A stretch of DNA of 63,983 nt, filler included, from Theionarchaea archaeon (lineage in GTDB: Archaea; Methanobacteriota_B; Thermococci; Methanofastidiosales; SZ-28-30): NCBI GenBank assembly GCA_018992565.1. It is 5 parts of 5 records of this genome, joined end to end, with 100 filler letters (N's around TTAATTAATTAA, not from the genome) between each part and the next. Parts side by side here need not be neighbours in the genome. Positions count along the whole stretch, not along the records: positions 40,296 to 48,518 come from JACVGW010000100.1; positions 48,619 to 56,788 come from JACVGW010000101.1; positions 56,889 to 63,983 come from JACVGW010000112.1; 2 more parts are not named here. One strand, written 5' to 3'. Position 1 is the first letter of the stretch. Each line of letters opens with the position of its first letter. Of the stretch, positions 48,001-57,000 are shown one piece after another. A program made the position numbers.

Positions 48001-51000
48001 AAAGTGTTAAAACTCCTGTACTCAGGTGGAGGTATGGAGAAGTACAACCTCCAGGGACTGTCCTGTGCAGACTGTGCATTCACCCTGGAAAAAGAGCTGT
48101 CGCAGATGGATTCAGTCACTACTGTCCACCTCAATGGTGCCACAGGCACTCTCTCTATAGACTGCGAAGATATAGATGAAGTTGCAAGAAAAATCAAGGA
48201 GCTGGAACCTGGGGTAACCATCACGAAATCGGAAGAGCCATCTCCCCATAGAACCCGTACCATCATCATTCTCGCTCTCATTTTCTTTTTGTTCGGATTA
48301 CTCTTCAGGGAACCCCTTCATGAGACTGTGTATTCATGGGCAGAATATGCCGTGTTTCTGACAGCCTACCTCCTGGTGGGGAGAAATGTGCTCAGGAAGG
48401 CTGTGCTCAATACTGTGAAGGGCCACATATTTGATGAGAATTTCTTGATGACAGTTGCCACTACAGGTGCTATCCTCATTCATCAGCTGCCAGAGGCTGC
48501 GGGAGTCATGCTCTTCTTNNNNNNNNNNNNNNNNNNNNNNNNNNNNNNNNNNNNNNNNNNNNTTAATTAATTAANNNNNNNNNNNNNNNNNNNNNNNNNN
48601 NNNNNNNNNNNNNNNNNNGGGATTACCTGTATTAGGCCCCAGATTCTAAGATGATGAAGACGGAGGAGAACCCCATGAGTGATATCAGTATAGTCAACGC
48701 CTCGCAAGTGGAGCACGGGCAGGGTGCGATTCCTGTTGGTCCGCTGCTCATCAGTGCTGTCCTCGAAGATCATGGATACAGCACTCGATTCAAGGACTAT
48801 CAAACCTTCCAGGCCCAGAAAAAGCTCAGCTTCAAGACCTTCTATAAATTCATCCAGGGCACGGAAAGCGTCATAGGAATAAGTGCTATTAGCAGCGATC
48901 TCCCTACCACGCTAGGCGCAATCACGCAGCTAAAGGAGGAACATCCAGAGAAAATTGTGATCTTGGGAGGACCCGGTCCAACAGACATTCCCGCAGAGAT
49001 ACTGGAGCACTTCCCGGTGGACATTATTGTGGTAGGTGAGGGCGAAGAGACAATTGTGGAAGTAATGCAGGCCCTTGATAAGAAAGAGAACCTTGAGGGC
49101 ATAGAGGGCATTGCGTACCGGGACAACGATCGCATTGTCATTTCTCCTCGGAGGAAGCGTATCCAAAATCTTGATTCTTTGCCATTCCCCGCTTACGATA
49201 AAATCGAATTCAAAGACTACAACTATTTAGGAGGAGTAATGACAATCAGGGGATGCCCCTACAGATGTACATTCTGCAGCGCTCATTCGGTATGGGAAAG
49301 AGAGATCACTCAGAGAACCGTGGAGAATGTCATAGAAGAGCTCCAGATCCTGAAAGAAAAGAGAGTCAGGAACATGTTCATCTATGATGACACCTTTGTA
49401 ATAGATTCACAGCGAGTCAAGAGGTTTGCTGAGCAATTTCACCAAGAATCAATTGATATTCCGTGGACCTGCTACGGAAGAATCAACCTCATGACGTCAG
49501 AGCTGCTGGAAATCATGGGGAAGAATGGGTGTAAAGAGATACTGTATGGAATTGAATCTGGTTCAAATAATGTTTTGAAGAGAGTGAACAAAAAATTCAC
49601 TATTGAAGAAGCATCAAGGATTGTGGAGAAGACAACACAGTACACAGATGTTGAAACGTCATATATCTGGGGATACCCCTTTGAAACTCTCGAAGATTTC
49701 TACGACACACTGATGGTAGTTTTCCACCAGACACACCTCCCTCGTGTAAGGCCACGGCTTGCTCTGCTTTCGCCTTTGCCAAAATCCGCTATTTTCTTGG
49801 AATATAGGGCCCAGATTGCATTTCCTGACGATCCTGAAATTGCACATCGTCTTGGATTTCTCCTGGGCAGAGAAAAACTCCTTGAATACCCTGAGGTAGT
49901 CGCACTGGTGAAGAGACATCCCGGGCTCTTCCCATCCTTCTATTACTTCTCTCATGATTTGCTAGAGCAGAAGCTGGAGCTATTCAAAACCATGGAGCAG
50001 AACCTATCACGGGCTTGAGAGTCCTGACTTCCAGGTCCACCTGGAATCCAGAAATGGATCAGAGATGGCACCAGTGGAATCAACCTAGCTTTCTCTTGAA
50101 ATCCTGCTGCTCTTATCTGATTTCGCCACACATTGAAAAAGAAAAAAAAGAAGTCAGTGACTCCAACTAGAGTTCTCTGATGCCTGGCACGAGAGAGATG
50201 CTGATTCCCCCAATGATCAATGCAGTGCCGGAGATGAGCAGCATGGTAACAACAGATGTCAAATCAATGAGAGTGCCCATGACTGCATATGATAAGGGGA
50301 CCAGGGCCATGGTCATGGTAACATAGACGCCAAAGACTTTGCCACGTTTCTCATTTGGGGTCAGCGTTTGCAGAAGAGTAATAATAACGATCTCTCCAAA
50401 CCCGCTGATGATCCCCTGAATAGCCATGAGAGCCATAGCAAAGTAGAAGTTTATCACCGTGCCAATTCCCAGCAGAGTCACCCCTGCCACAATAGGGAAT
50501 AAGATGAGAATTCTAGATTTATTTTCTATCTTCGGCTTAACAGCAAGAATGAAGGTCGATACCAGAATGCCCAGAGAATCCGCACTAATGAGGAGCCCGT
50601 ACGCCAGATCACCCATATGATAGTACGTTTCAGACAGAATCTTGAACACGATCACCAGGGGTGCTGCAAAGAATGTCATTGCTCCCAGGACTATGATAAT
50701 ACCCAGGATGGGCTTTTTCTCCAGAATGAATCCAAATCCTTCCTTCATATCGGCGAGAACGTGCTTTTCCGGACCTTCACGTCTGACAAGAGGTATTGTA
50801 ATGAAAGACTCAGAGAACGCAGAGAACAGAAATGATATTCCATTGATTATGAAAGCTAAAGGAACTCCGAGGGTTACCACCAGAATGCCTCCGATTGCAG
50901 GTCCTATAACGCCAGAAATCTTTGAAGTGATTCCTATCAGACTATTCGCACGATTTAGCTCCTCTTCAGGGACAATAGTTGGAATAGATGCTCTCAGGGC

Positions 51001-54000: not shown

Positions 54001-57000
54001 AGTATCATAGAAATCATCCAGAGACTCTCCAGGAAATCCCCACATATATGATGTGTAAACTCGATCGAAATGTTGATTCGCCCTTACAATGTCCTGTCTC
54101 GCCTCTTCTGGCTTGAATTCTTTCCGTATCTTCTTAAGGATAGAACTAGACCCTGATTCTATTCCCAGAAAGAGAGTATCACACCCGGCATGACTCATGG
54201 ATTCCATGAGCGAGTCCGGCAACATACCGACTCTGCCAGTACAGGACCAGTTCTTATCAATGCCTTCTTTCTTGAGGCTCTCGCAGAATTCCACCACCCG
54301 TTCTTTTTCTAGAACGAAGGTGTCATCAGACAAATTGATCCTGTCAATCTTATCCTCGATTTGCAGCAATTCATCTATAACATTCTCAACAGAGCGTAAC
54401 GTCTTTCTGCTCTTCCAGATGGACTTGACACAGAACGTACACTGGAATGGACAACCCCGGGCAGTAATGACATTTGCCTCTTTCCTGTATTCTCCAAAAT
54501 CGATATGATGATAGGCTGGAAAAGGCACAGAATCCAGATCGACAATTCGCTGCCGCTCCGGTGTGGTCACAATGTTGCCGTTGTCTCTATAGCAGATACC
54601 ATTCACAGAGCTGAGGGAATCTCCCCTGTCAAGAGCCTCCATGATCTCCACAATAGTCCTTTCACCTTCACCCACAACTGCTATATCAACCGCGGAGAGT
54701 TCCAGAAGGCGTTCAGTACTCACCGAGGCAGCTGGTCCTCCAAGTATGACAGTAACATCATGGCTCTCTTTCAGAAGACTCACAGCCTTCAGTACGGAAG
54801 GTAGTGCATTGCAAAAGACACTGATACCCAGAACAGGCGCAGAAGATTCCATGAAATGTGAGAGCACTTCCGGATCTGCCTTTCTTTTCACATCTTCGTT
54901 CTGATAGTCTGTAAATTCAACGGAATACCCGGCTTCTTCCAGAGACGCTGCAATGTACAGGAGGCCAATGCCCAACTGCCCTCTGCCTGCACCAATCACT
55001 GAATTCATCAGAGTAATATCTGTCATTCCTATCTCCTCTTTCTTCACTCAGACCGTCACAAGACTCTTGTTTTTCAAGTCCTCAATCAATTCTATGGTGT
55101 CAGCCAGGACTTCATCAAACGAGGGAGCACCCTCAATCGTGGTGTGAATCTCCTGCGCAATCTCTCTGATGGTGCGATCACCAGTGCACTGGTTCCATAT
55201 TTCGCGTCCCACTTCGTTAACCACAAAATACTGGGCAGTCATCACGTTGAAGAGGGCCAGATCATCCCCCTGTTCACGTGGCCGGACATGTGCAACTCTT
55301 TTTGGTTTGGCTGTATCTTCCATTCATTTCACCTCATACACTCTATTTCCTCACAGATTCTCCCGACAGGATAGTCTTCACAAATCTCTGCGTATTCCTT
55401 CCCTGGATCCATGGCCGCTATGGGACATGGCACACATTCCTTGGGGAAAAAATCACATTCGTCACACCTGGGGAGATATTCTGCTATCACATTTGGAGAC
55501 TGCATATAAAACAATCGTTCAAAATCCTCAGAACATAAAATATCGACAATTCCATTCTCCAGGAGACTGCTGCCACGACTGACATATACATCATGATTCT
55601 TGAGGGTGAGGTCCGGGAGAGCACCTTTACAAGGAAAAGCAGTCCCGTCAGCACGGATGAAGATGGTTGACGTGGTCGCCCCACATTTCTTTGGTTCTAT
55701 TGGCAGGTGGATGCCATACTTCTCATTCAAATATTCAATCAAAGGGGGCATGGCAAATAACATAGTGACAAATTCACAATTCATATCAAGTTCAAGAAGG
55801 GTCTCAATAACAGTTTCAGCAAGATGGATGAATTCCAGAGGAGAAAGGATGACACTCCGTTCCATGGTAGCTGCATTTCCCTGATATGACAGCATCTCCA
55901 AAATGACACGAGTGAAATTCATGTCCTTTGCCATTTTGATAAGTGTAGTAACCTCATGAACATTCATTTTGGAAACAACCACATCCATCACCAGTGAATC
56001 CAGAGAATGCGTGGCCACAGCTGAGACATTTCCCACTACCTTGTCGAAATTACTTCCCCTGCGAATGTATGAATAGGTCTCTCTAGAAGCTCCATCAATA
56101 CTCACTGCAACGCCCTTGAGCCCTGCCTCAATAAGAGACTCCAGCAACTCCTCAGTGAGAAGGAGTCCATTCGTGATAATAAACGGGGCTGAATTCCTGT
56201 TCTTTACCTGCCTTACTATCTGTGGAAGGTCTTTCCGAAGCAGCGGTTCGCCTCCGAACATTCCCACATTCGCGATTGGTAGAATACACAGGTTTTCCAG
56301 AACACACATCATGTTCTCTGTGGACAGCTCTGTTTGGTTTCCTCTATACAGAGACGTTGCATAACAATGCCTACAATTAAGGTTACAACGTGGAGTGACA
56401 TCCCAGTCTACAAAGCTCAATCCACCTTTGGCCATTACATCACTTTCTTTCGCTTTCTAATCCGTATCTTTGGCGTTCAAAGAATCCTTTGTCAGTGAAT
56501 ACTTCTCTTTGCATAAATAAAAAAAATAGAAAGTAAAGAAGTACTACATTGGTTGATCTAGTATGGCACGGCAGGCAGGCTGATGAGCCACTTGTCTGCT
56601 GTAATCCTTACAGTAATTTCTTCTAATCTGGGCTTTGCGTACATAAGTATTCACCTCCTTTCATTTTGTACTACAGAATCTAAGACTGATTCTGTTGTTA
56701 GAATTACCCTAAAGTATTTATAAGCTTTTCCATTATTTACAGGATTAATCTCCTTTTATATAGAAAAAGGTTTATAGATAATTCAAAGNNNNNNNNNNNN
56801 NNNNNNNNNNNNNNNNNNNNNNNNNNNNNNNNTTAATTAATTAANNNNNNNNNNNNNNNNNNNNNNNNNNNNNNNNNNNNNNNNNNNNCATTCAGCAGCC
56901 TTTTCTACTCTGAGGGCACCTTTTTCGTCAACAAAGTCCTTTTCCATGTCATTTATCATCAATACTCTCATGAAAACCACAACCTTATTATATCACCTTC

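Follow-up and report, generated by a model that had tools for sequence, protein, structure and literature searches.

Bottromycin biosynthesis employs three B12-binding radical SAM enzymes, and that of polytheonamide employs PoyB/C. PQQ (PqqA/D/E) and mycofactocin (MftA/B/C) are made from precursors of fewer than 35 amino acids with a stand-alone PqqD-family chaperone and a radical SAM/SPASM enzyme that lacks a recognition domain of its own. Cobalamin radical SAM enzymes acting on ribosomal peptides are also found in the aminopyruvatide (ApyD) and clavusporin (MpcB) pathways. According to PMC10635010, ApyD is a peptide C-beta methyltransferase carrying its own RiPP recognition element (RRE), while MpcB is described as possessing a CX7CX2C motif and needing a DUF5825 partner (PMC10849626). 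The clavusporin cluster encodes MpcB with an MFS protein and an S9 peptidase, the MFS gene adjoining that of a 13-residue, multiply C-methylated peptide with a short, beta-branched, hydrophobic core (PMC10849626). M50 membrane proteases are reported to be at work in RiPP pathways as EpeP/YydH, TglG and TmoG (PMC10885120, PMC7026026), the latter two releasing single modified amino acids (PMC10885120). Of these, EpeP belongs to the epeXEPAB (yydFGHIJ) system of Bacillus subtilis, described as encoding a small Cys-free hydrophobic precursor, one radical SAM enzyme and the M50 protease (PMC7026026, PMC10885120, PMC13012085).

A locus resembling each of these systems in part was analysed in a window of 63,983 nucleotides from a marine-sediment archaeon (the whole stretch of DNA under study, to which all positions refer). 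The following features were identified:

56694..56732, minus strand: conserved upstream block with TATA-like TTATAAATA (56723-56715), putative archaeal promoter (comparison with G032, a close relative)
56651..56658, minus strand: Shine-Dalgarno-type box GGAGGTGA, 6 nt before the ATG (read in the window sequence)
56558..56644, minus strand: precursor peptide gene, 28 aa, MYAKPRLEEITVRITADKWLISLPAVPY (ORF, pN/pS, homologues, co-fold)
56513..56540, minus strand: T-rich tract located 18-45 nt past the stop of the peptide gene and including eight consecutive T at 56526-56519 (window sequence)
55329..56435, minus strand: radical SAM/SPASM enzyme, 368 aa (Pfam, Cys pattern)
55048..55323, minus strand: stand-alone PqqD-type RRE, 91 aa (Pfam PqqD, co-fold)
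53689..55047, minus strand: B12-binding radical SAM enzyme B12a, 452 aa from GTG (Pfam, orthology)
52292..53692, minus strand: B12-binding radical SAM enzyme B12b, 466 aa (Pfam, orthology)
51417..52295, minus strand: polytopic HEMGH membrane protein, 292 aa (AF2 model, fold search, Pfam)
50167..51414, minus strand: MFS exporter of the DHA3/EntS-like type, 415 aa (Pfam, NCBIfam)
48651..50018, plus strand: third B12-binding radical SAM enzyme B12c, 455 aa, convergent with the operon (Pfam, identity, G032)

A preliminary description had read this locus as a complete seven-gene RiPP cluster. The seven minus-strand genes and their order are in place, and the reported spacings of -4 to 21 bp were reproduced (-4 to +5 nt, the upper value becoming +21 nt if B12a starts at its ATG), apart from a 122-nt spacer after the peptide gene. 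Its Pfam domain calls also held, including the sub-threshold one to Peptidase_M50. With B12c, which probably belongs to the cluster, eight genes are counted. The contig carrying them extends from 48619 to 56788, with 32 nt in front of B12c and only 144 nt in front of the peptide gene; the cluster can therefore not be claimed as complete, and this genome may miss further genes of it.

Homology between this locus and epeXEPAB does not extend beyond the superfamily. Compared with that system, it adds the stand-alone RRE and the B12-binding radical SAM enzymes, has an MFS protein in place of an ABC transporter, and its membrane protein ends in a beta-sandwich and scores under the M50 threshold of Pfam. 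It shares with bottromycin the presence of several B12-binding paralogues, and with the clavusporin cluster an MFS gene alongside a short hydrophobic peptide. However, the paralogues here are of about 450 aa and, unlike ApyD, have no RRE and share the separate PqqD protein; unlike MpcB, they possess CX3CX2C motifs and no DUF5825 partner is encoded. None of the ApyD, clavusporin, bottromycin or polytheonamide clusters has the SPASM enzyme or the site-2-protease-like protein present here. A literature search for the peptide family found no description of it.

The precursor gene had been proposed as an uncalled 28-codon ORF, and comparison with G032 bears this out. There are fifteen nucleotide differences between the two copies, and twelve codons are changed, ten synonymously and two non-synonymously (R6M and V26L in G032, the two differences of 28 already reported). 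The resulting pN/pS is 0.058 (binomial P = 3.7e-6 for 12 or more of the 15 changes hitting synonymous sites), and both other forward frames are interrupted by stops, in either the window or G032. The ORF is real and under strong purifying selection. Homologues of 28-30 aa occur in three further lineages (L012, L029 and L015), and the same box precedes the start codon by 4-6 nt in these and in G032. Eight residues are invariant in all five peptides (Y2, P5, E9, I14, D17, K18, L20 and S22), within an N-terminal motif, Y-x-[KR]-P-x-[LI]-x-E, and a core motif, I-x-[AT]-D-K-[WI]-L-x-S-[LI], the conserved core stretch spanning about 13 residues. The central D-K pair is the most strictly conserved part of the core, positions 10, 12, 14, 16, 18, 20 and 22 are invariant or conservatively kept, and the C-terminal residues are unlike in each lineage (PAVPY, APVAAK, KQLAD and HVCN). 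No NCBIfam model matches the peptide, as previously found. Upstream, the block at 56694..56732 is near-identical in G032 while its flanks have diverged, and its motif suggests an archaeal promoter. The T-rich tract is likewise identical within an otherwise diverged spacer; it may possibly act as a partial terminator, raising precursor mRNA over that of the enzymes.

The RRE exceeds the cut-off of the Pfam PqqD model (44.6 bits versus 23.4). Co-folding of the L012 pair, using alignments A7 and A8, gave an ipSAE of 0.73 against 0.48 for the best control, a level attained in 116 out of 157 complexes of known structure and in 2 out of 215 mismatched pairings, although as solved RRE-leader complexes exist this may partly reflect likeness to them. 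Three runs shared at least 86% of contacts, with a partner pLDDT of at least 61, and placed residues 2-14 of the 32-aa reading of the L012 peptide (about 1-10 in the window) against residues 35-43 and a helix of the RRE. As the model sets these residues on the recognition protein, the leader is predicted to comprise residues 1-10 or thereabouts and the core approximately residues 11-28.

No enzyme of the cluster attained the cut-off of a curated NCBIfam family whose function is defined, so every reaction assigned here is by analogy. All three B12-binding radical SAM enzymes possess B12-binding and Radical_SAM domains above the Pfam cut-offs (65.6 and 69.8 bits for B12a; 42.9 and 67.3 bits for B12b). 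Among curated models, ApyD matched all three best, at 167-172 bits (167 for B12a and 170 for B12b, cut-off 750), the HpnJ and BchE models scoring almost level with it. B12a, for which G032 uses an alternative ATG start (55026 in the window, giving 445 aa), is orthologous to 4049-5389 of L012 (support 100/99), and B12b to 5382-6737 (support 98/96). B12c was absent from the preliminary description; it shares 41-45% identity with B12a and B12b, 48% with 8133-9467 of L015 and only 25% with an unrelated B12-binding radical SAM enzyme of 629 aa, and is found at the same place in G032 (80% identity). The number of paralogues per cluster is two to five. Non-methylating reactions are also known among enzymes of this type.

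The SPASM enzyme (Radical_SAM, 87 bits; Fer4_12, 33 bits; SPASM, 19.8 bits against a cut-off of 21.5) has its CX3CX2C motif at C17/C21/C24 and eight C-terminal cysteines (C252, C269, C324, C327, C334, C337, C352 and C361), which by their pattern would be enough for two auxiliary clusters. Every NCBIfam match was under its cut-off (PqqE, 101 bits versus 381; MftC, 79 versus 265), and the nearest solved sequences were GDGT-MAS (4.5e-28) and PqqE (6e-22). With a lipid synthase, PqqE and MoaA as its closest kin, its reaction is not indicated by homology. Oxidative cross-linkers typically have a full SPASM domain with two clusters. It had been argued that a Cys-free peptide points to C-C or C-O linkage. 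Cysteine is indeed absent from the window peptide, but this inference is weakened by the relatives, which carry Cys at non-conserved places, and by Trp19, the sole aromatic residue of the core, which is Ile in L015; the conserved chemistry can thus be neither a thioether nor an aromatic cross-link.

The SPASM enzyme could alternatively be a C-alpha epimerase like EpeE/YydG, introducing D-residues into the hydrophobic core. Together with C-methylation this would yield a small, membrane-active peptide resembling polytheonamide or clavusporin, cleaved and perhaps exported with M50-like help as proposed for EpeP. The architecture matches that of epeXEP in its precursor, radical SAM enzyme and M50-type membrane protein, and conservation at every second core position would suit strand-like recognition or alternating modification. 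Yet the YydG model gives this enzyme no more than 20.8 bits (cut-off 300), no additional invariant Cys is apparent that might donate hydrogen, and EpeE is described as having just one auxiliary cluster, within a twitch-type domain (PMC13012085), whereas the cysteines here allow for two. We regard this reading as unlikely, and an oxidative reaction, such as cross-linking or ring formation at aliphatic, Asp/Lys or Ser positions, as more likely than epimerisation.

The membrane protein consists of a site-2-protease (S2P)-like membrane domain (residues 55-190 or so) followed by a C-terminal beta-sandwich (approximately 190-290). The earlier assignment as a protease relied on the HEMGH motif and an M50 hit, both of which were found again (E 4.8e-4, 20 bits versus a cut-off of 27.2, residues 70-189). 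It is strengthened by the AF2 model (pLDDT 90, pTM 0.86), for which VIA-align placed four S2P structures among its best 26 matches at 17-23% identity: RseP (Z 9.5), SpoIVFB (Z 8.9), Aquifex RseP (Z 8.4) and MjS2P (Z 7.9), values of 8-9.5 being middling on the program's own scale for helical proteins. As in these proteases, HExxH lies in a transmembrane helix and is followed by a beta-hairpin, a helix with G-x-x-x-N (G133, N137), in register with AGSxxN of archaeal M50 proteins in hhalign, and an invariant Asp downstream (D181); PDZ or CBS domains are absent. Fourteen diverse family members share H77, E78, G80, H81, R129, G133, N137, T171, D181, D193, Y223 and W224. By sequence the link is weak: the M50 match was sub-threshold in nine of the 14 and under threshold in every member with a score seen, hhalign against archaeal M50 domains gave a probability of 13% (E 0.002, 72 columns), an hmmsearch against PDB sequences found no M50 protein, and there is no NCBIfam model, although ESM Atlas leads also indicate M50. 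A divergent S2P-like zinc protease is proposed. The family is small: at 50% identity it has 18 representatives in a set of 1.84 billion proteins, and all five members whose loci were examined sit in this type of cluster.

Five loci were examined in full: the window, G032/L010, a Clostridia MAG (L012), a genome of a Clostridia order (G673/L029) and L015, from a bacterium-like metagenomic organism. In each, the homologous short ORF behind a GGAGGTG box is followed by the same six gene types, and G032 (contig C10) has the identical gene set and order. This supports the RiPP-pathway reading. The earlier concern that the cluster is limited to a single close relative no longer applies, and the system is not peculiar to the archaeon. 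The G+C content of the carriers is 46% (archaeal genus), 30% and 26% (the two Clostridia) and 62% (L015). A cultivable Clostridium isolate is also among the carriers.

An HTH_3 plus TPR regulator is encoded on the minus strand of L012 (543-1853), head to head with the cluster, and the interval between the two contains an ORF of 44 aa (2122-2256) whose N-terminus resembles a signal peptide. In Firmicutes, site-2 proteases process short hydrophobic pheromones to their mature form, and the product of the same biosynthesis might accordingly be a modified signalling peptide instead of an antagonistic or surface-active compound. This appears improbable, as no such regulator was found beside the archaeal clusters or in the L029 stretch read, and eight genes with three cobalamin enzymes would be costly for a signal. 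The L012 regulator may just control the cluster through its own 44-aa pro-peptide, as quorum-regulated radical SAM peptide systems in streptococci have a regulator with a separate pro-peptide.

The MFS protein (MFS_1, 139.8 bits; MFS_3, 93 bits; TIGR00900, 237 bits versus a cut-off of 319.6) is of a type of pump that carries mostly small molecules. The precursor could hence be a scaffold for a small molecule, as for PQQ, mycofactocin, pantocin and the pearlins, a few residues such as D17-K18 entering a product released by the M50-like protein and exported by the MFS pump. The stand-alone PqqD beside a SPASM enzyme, the PqqE and MftC matches, the strict conservation of the D-K pair and the release of single amino acids by TglG/TmoG (PMC10885120) would agree with this. 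It is nevertheless very improbable: the precursor lacks the Glu-X3-Tyr motif and any match to the PqqA Pfam model at E up to 10, the PqqE and MftC scores are far below their cut-offs, and B12-binding enzymes, protease and exporter stand in place of downstream tailoring genes of the PqqB/C, MftD/E or PEARL type. Furthermore, the C-terminal residues vary with lineage, unlike those of pearlin or mycofactocin substrates, and the conserved core exceeds what a small-molecule scaffold needs. A reading in which the ORF arose by chance and the substrate of the enzymes is a lipid, cofactor or protein is practically refuted by the low pN/pS, the interrupted alternative frames, the PqqD peptide-binding domain and the recurrence of box and eight-residue pattern in four distinct lineages that differ widely in G+C, even though such enzymes serve archaea for lipids and methyl-coenzyme M reductase, and Tes and the MCR glutamine methyltransferase are among the sub-threshold matches.

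We consider it likely that the cluster is a working RiPP biosynthetic pathway of an undescribed family. The precursor would be translated from its own, strongly signalled gene and held through its short leader by the PqqD-type protein, which would present the hydrophobic core of about 18 residues to enzymes without a recognition domain. The B12-dependent paralogues most likely methylate unactivated side-chain carbons, and the SPASM enzyme would add one further radical modification. The S2P-like protease would then cut off the leader in the membrane before the MFS pump exports the product, whose bioactivity, if any, may be antagonistic or surface-active. The cluster was found in 2 of 133 genomes of the archaeal class, in 2 of the 401 sampled from the Clostridia order and, within the family of G673, in 1 of 59, a rare and patchy distribution as expected of an accessory pathway.

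The genes on contig C73 (window 48619-56788, 8170 bases; one of the contigs chained by N runs in the window) form a real gene cluster of an uncharacterised RiPP family, one that is conserved across domains. The source genome is a 2.8-Mb assembly of 154 contigs, 88% complete. The genes of the cluster are as follows.

56558-56644, minus strand, 28-codon precursor ORF
55329-56435, minus strand, radical SAM (rSAM)/SPASM gene
55048-55323, minus strand, PqqD gene
53689-55047, minus strand, B12-binding rSAM gene (B12a)
52292-53692, minus strand, B12-binding rSAM gene (B12b)
51417-52295, minus strand, gene of the 292-aa HEMGH membrane protein
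50167-51414, minus strand, MFS gene
48651-50018, plus strand, third B12-binding rSAM gene (B12c), convergent with the MFS gene and 148 nt away from it

The minus-strand set of seven named in the preliminary description was recovered in full at these positions, both as ORFs and by Pfam domains; the count of seven falls one short, as B12c is one more member of the cluster. Spacings within the operon are -4 to +5 nt, the genes abutting or overlapping, with the exception of a 122-nt spacer 3' of the peptide gene; a spacing of +21 nt results if B12a starts at the ATG used in the sister archaeal genome G032. B12c is kept at the same position in G032 (80% identity) and its promoter lies off contig C73. 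It is 41-45% identical to B12a and B12b and 48% identical to one copy (8133-9467 region) of the metagenome locus L015, and only 25% identical to the unrelated 629-aa B12-rSAM of G032. The logic of the cluster is ordinary, comprising leader recognition, radical tailoring, cleavage and export. What is new is the combination of parts, the precursor and a private protease clade, and the archaeal host is unusual. No cluster enzyme reached a curated NCBIfam cut-off, all matches being far below, and the earlier statement that no NCBIfam model matches the peptide was confirmed and applies to the membrane protein as well. In the full-text literature searched, a scope outside which lie the rSAM-RiPP atlas and supplements, the gene set and peptide motif were undescribed. 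Twenty DNA runs contain the stretch; they belong to six studies and comprise metagenomes of marine sediment, soil and mangrove as well as unlabelled ones. No RNA run is listed as containing it.

It had been noted that only one close relative carries the cluster, and this did not hold: six gene types with a small ORF at their head were found in all five fully read loci, namely the window, G032, an uncultured Clostridia MAG (L012), a Clostridia-order genome (G673, locus L029) and L015. The order in L015 is precursor, PqqD, four B12-rSAMs, SPASM, one more B12-rSAM, protease and MFS. A scan of genome contigs confirmed two of 16 pattern matches (G032 and L012), while a scan of metagenome contigs confirmed four of 85 (L013-L016, near-identical to each other; in L013, L014 and L016 the precursor alone was checked). 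One further carrier, G673, came from a 401-genome sample of the order of L012. Within the archaeon's class, two of 133 genomes carry the family marker; they belong to one genus, the third genome of which (84% complete) is without it. The marker was also identified in one of 399 scored sample genomes of the Clostridia class, this being the query's own genome, in two of 401 genomes of the order sample and in one of 59 genomes of the family of G673. For the membrane protein, five relatives at 60-100% identity were found in an index of 5.8 billion proteins, one of them from a Methanofastidiosia MAG, and the family profile retrieved only 18 representatives among 1.84 billion proteins (16 at E up to 1e-10). 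Named members of this family belong to Clostridium sp. 19966 and a Bacillota MAG. A tblastn search of the Clostridium member (P0025) against plasmids gave no match.

The G+C content of the loci tracks that of the host (C73 45.6% vs genome 46.7%; the two Clostridia loci 30% and 26%; L015 62%). Recent transfer or a binning error was rejected, as the value of C73 is not anomalous (sd 1.2% in 8-kb windows). The pattern is that of an old, sporadically transferred accessory cluster.

The small gene is real. Between the window and G032 it carries 15 nucleotide differences in 12 codons, ten of them synonymous and two not (R6M and V26L), giving pS 0.66, pN 0.038 and pN/pS 0.058 (binomial P 3.7e-6), and the remaining two forward frames contain stop codons in the window or G032. 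A homologous ORF of 28-30 aa adjoins the same gene set in 5/5 loci examined in full; the gene that immediately follows it is SPASM in four of them and PqqD in L015. A GGAGGTGA box stands 6 nt upstream of the window precursor ATG and an identical box lies 4-6 nt ahead of all five precursor genes. Further upstream, the window and G032 share nearly every base of a 39-nt block that contains a TATA-like TTATAAATA, its flanks having diverged, and downstream of the precursor a T-rich tract with eight consecutive T is identical in both. Judged by their motifs, the upstream block would be an archaeal promoter and the T tract a leaky terminator favouring precursor mRNA. Metagenome contigs covered the stretch in part, one run contributing none, which is too little to build on; one strain variant among them shows seven differences, each of which falls in the spacer (56453-56511), the peptide gene being unchanged. 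No second precursor was seen upstream of the convergent B12-rSAM in G032, and a whole-genome motif scan gave no further precursor-like ORFs.

A perfect 8-bp inverted repeat, ACAGAATC-N7-GATTCTGT, occupies window 56673-56695 (minus strand) between the TATA-like and ribosome-binding boxes. Both arms are kept in G032 with one G-U-compatible change, and five of the seven loop bases differ. As an RNA hairpin of the 5'-UTR it scored z values of -0.9 and -1.4, which are not significant; a dimeric regulator may instead use it as an operator.

The five precursors are as follows.

Window precursor: MYAKPRLEEITVRITADKWLISLPAVPY
G032 precursor: the window sequence with R6M and V26L
G673 precursor: MEYKKPEINEISISISTDKWLVSLAPVAAK
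L012 precursor: (MKNV)KYVKPSIKEISVCITADKWLLSLKQLAD
L015 precursor: MTYERPTLNEVEINIKADKILMSIHVCN

The start of the L012 precursor is likely the GTG located 5 nt past its GGAGGTGA box, giving 29 aa vs 32 aa as mechanically listed. Y2, P5, E9, I14, D17, K18, L20 and S22 are invariant across the five sequences. Trp19 is replaced by Ile in L015, cysteine is absent from the window and G032 peptides and present as a single residue in L012 and in L015, not at the same position, and each lineage has its own last four to six residues (C-termini VPY, LPY, AAK, LAD and VCN). Because these positions vary, a thioether, an aromatic cross-link and a reaction at the C-terminus are all excluded as the conserved chemistry. 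The peptide had been put forward as cysteine-free with carbon-carbon or carbon-oxygen cross-linking: the window peptide is indeed free of cysteine, while an aromatic cross-link is not conserved, given the Ile of L015.

Pfam PqqD was matched by the 91-aa protein at 44.6 bits vs a cut-off of 23.4. The rSAM motif of the SPASM enzyme begins at residue 17 and the B12-rSAMs are ~450 aa long, so that room for a recognition domain of their own is lacking; the PqqD protein therefore probably serves all the rSAM enzymes. The L012 PqqD protein was co-folded with the L012 precursor (four-row alignment each), giving an ipSAE of 0.73 vs 0.48 for the best control; of 157 solved complexes, 116 attain that mark, as do two of 215 mismatched pairs. 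Since solved RRE-leader complexes exist, this pass partly shows likeness to them. The runs agreed in at least 86% of contacts, with a partner pLDDT of at least 61. In the modelled interface, peptide residues 2-14 of the 32-aa reading (window ~1-10, including Y2, P5 and E9) contact residues 35-43 and a helix of the RRE in the canonical mode. Putative binding of the leader by the RRE is supported by the co-fold only; the model also supports a putative leader of ~10 residues and a core of ~18 residues (TVRITADKWLISLPAVPY).

The SPASM enzyme has the CX3CX2C motif at C17/C21/C24 and the seven-Cys pattern for two auxiliary clusters (C252-X12-G-X4-C269, C324-X2-C327-X6-C334-X2-C337, C352 and C361; eight C-terminal Cys). 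The window protein scores 19.8 bits against Pfam SPASM (cut-off 21.5), and its closest homologues, P0006 and P0008, have a precomputed assignment to the SPASM family. Homologues fall into tiers of 67-85%, ~40-42% and 33-34% identity. The nearest relatives (GDGT-MAS, PqqE, MoaA and SkfB) are uninformative on the reaction, and the ESM Atlas returned generic rSAM clusters only for this enzyme. With a predicted full pair of clusters in its SPASM domain, the enzyme would more probably carry out an oxidative reaction.

Several known systems were compared with the cluster, and it belongs to none of them. For a Lys-Trp cross-link of the streptide/WGK type, K18 is invariant, but residue 19 is Ile in L015 and the WgkB model reached 77.4 bits vs 650. 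Assignment to the epipeptides by homology (EpeE/YydG, TIGR04078) was rejected at a match of 20.8 bits (E 2.6e-4) vs a cut-off of 300, the SPASM enzyme being no epimerase of the YydG type; in EpeE itself, the auxiliary clusters reportedly number just one (PMC13012085). The clavusporin (Mpc) type also employs a B12-rSAM, described with a CX7CX2C motif, a DUF5825 partner and an S9 peptidase (PMC10849626); here the motif is CX3CX2C and the cluster is without a DUF5825 or S9 gene. Two of the C-termini end in Tyr (VPY and LPY), the others being AAK, LAD and VCN. The mycofactocin substrate terminates in Gly-Val-Tyr, and the MftC score here was 79.1 bits vs 265. For PQQ biosynthesis, the PqqE match is 101 bits vs 381.35; the peptide lacks E-X3-Y and PqqA models were without a match at E up to 10 for 3/3 peptides, on which ground a supposed likeness of the leader to PqqA was likewise set aside. 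Sactipeptides and ranthipeptides were discarded, conserved Cys donors being absent from the core.

All three B12-rSAMs possess both expected domains, with B12-binding scores of 42.9, 65.6 and 50.8 bits (Pfam cut-off 32.1), Radical_SAM scores of 67-70 bits, also above the Pfam cut-off, and a CX3CX2C motif in each. The best curated match of all three is ApyD (NF050148; 167.1, 170.4 and 172.5 bits, short of the cut-off of 750), followed by HpnJ, BchE, PhpK and the MCR glutamine C-methyltransferase, with the non-methylating HpnJ/BchE at 125-138 bits. According to PMC10635010, ApyD forms beta-methyltyrosine within the precursor of a RiPP. Among solved structures, PDB 9ccb is the nearest relative of B12a. 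L012 has a one-to-one orthologue of B12a and another of B12b (support 100/99 and 98/96), which suggests that the two have distinct, conserved jobs. By analogy, methylation of unactivated carbons would be the likeliest role of the B12-rSAMs. Copies per locus number two in L012 and L029, three in the archaea and five in L015. The five tandem paralogues of L015 (1527-9467; 44-47% mutual identity) accompany a 28-aa precursor, the one without Trp, and are the highest B12-rSAM count seen in the family.

The membrane protein had been likened to M50 site-2 proteases on the basis of its HEMGH motif and a weak Pfam match. The motif lies at 77-81 inside a predicted helix (56-87), with H, E, G and H invariant in 14/14 aligned members; the residues invariant among these diverse sequences are H77, E78, G80, H81, R129, G133, N137, T171, D181, D193, Y223 and W224. 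The Pfam match was reproduced (PF02163, 20 bits, E 4.8e-4) and again fell below the gathering score of 27.2; sub-threshold matches to the M50 model were seen in nine of 14 members (E up to 0.1; best E 3.1e-4). A confident AlphaFold model (pLDDT 90, pTM 0.86) consists of helices, a beta-hairpin past the HExGH helix, a further pair of helices and, at the C-terminus, a beta-sandwich. With an exhaustive structural aligner, the RseP orthologue 7w6z_A ranked first (Z 9.5, rmsd 3.7, 131 aligned, 19% identity) and, within the top 26, SpoIVFB 8vjl_A (Z 8.9, 124 aligned), Aquifex RseP 9j83_A (Z 8.4, 127 aligned) and the Methanocaldococcus jannaschii S2P 3b4r_B (Z 7.9, 118 aligned, 23% identity) were also found, all covering model residues ~55-220; by the aligner's own warning, Z below ~13 can reflect a common arrangement in helical proteins. 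Using hhalign against M50 domains of the same order, the HExxH and a G-x-x-x-N helix were in register (probability 13%, E 0.002). A candidate for the third zinc ligand, which in M50 proteases is the Asp of the LDG motif, is the invariant D181 in an [ST]-D motif past the last membrane helices; no alignment extended as far as the M50 LDG motif. Leads from the ESM Atlas also point towards M50, whereas the family profile searched against PDB sequences gave chance rows at E > 1 only and no M50. The protein is therefore probably a divergent offshoot of the site-2-protease clan: its invariant motif and fold matches stand beside a Pfam cut-off that was not reached.

Foldseek against PDB matched only the C-terminal sandwich, to carbohydrate-binding modules and pilin/Ig-like domains at E 2e-3 or worse, the nearest folds spanning 2e-3 to 1e-2, and these matches show no function. 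The sandwich (residues ~190-292; window 51417-51990) has VIA Z values of 8-9 with such folds and contains the invariant Y223-W224 pair. M50 proteases already serve RiPP pathways, EpeP, TglG and TmoG having been described (PMC10885120). The candidate protease clade is small, self-contained and equipped with a new C-terminal domain, and it appears to be dedicated to peptide maturation.

Other genes were observed around the loci. In L012, a 436-aa HTH_3 and TPR regulator (543-1853, minus strand) faces away from the cluster, and between the two lies a 44-aa ORF (2122-2256, plus strand) whose N-terminus resembles a signal peptide and whose C-terminal tail is acidic; regulator and ORF look like a peptide sensor with its own pro-pheromone, which would place the cluster under quorum control. 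In G032, more rSAM gene groups occur just upstream of the cluster on contig C10 (L030 10568-18999; L010 67-4287), encoding an MFS protein, a TPR protein, three rSAM proteins, a PqqD-domain protein, an rSAM/SPASM enzyme, a GNAT protein and the 629-aa B12-rSAM, and these may form another cluster for peptide maturation, or an island of such clusters. The 42-kb contig also carries V4R, methanogen-output-domain and preQ0 genes (folE2 and QueC). In its own 2.8-Mb genome, the cluster's SPASM enzyme has 41 matching places (E up to 1e-5), and a first look gave 49-80 rSAM/SPASM candidates in the three genomes of the genus vs 3-15 in the other 31 of the order, so the genus seems greatly enriched in such genes. 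Two features of other contigs, outside the cluster, are cut by N spacers: a heavy-metal-associated, P-type-ATPase-like N-terminus (window 47893-48570, plus strand) and a short gene fragment (~56837-56980, minus strand).

A tentative and somewhat doubtful reading is that the cluster represents a new RiPP class, in which the SPASM enzyme oxidises a substrate without using a thiol or aromatic ring, two to five cobalamin enzymes methylate unactivated carbons and a private clade of site-2-like intramembrane proteases releases the product. The candidate SPASM reaction would then be a cross-link or ring closure among I14, D17, K18, L20 and S22. If this were true, Archaea would have their first recognised pathway to a radical-SAM/B12-tailored peptide natural product, one held in common with Clostridia via transfer between domains in anoxic sediments. 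Little is known of peptide natural products in Archaea; the literature covered gave only archaeal lanthipeptides and, in methanogens, a protein-thioether SPASM enzyme (PMC13692751). Here a compact, fully syntenic pathway occurs in an uncultured sediment archaeon. The SPASM enzyme is of interest in that its conserved substrate positions rule out the usual thioether and aromatic cross-links, and the bacterial counterparts, which include one from a Clostridium isolate in culture, make the chemistry testable. The family is a specialised biosynthetic cluster common to Archaea and Bacteria, each copy of which is fitted to the base composition of its host.
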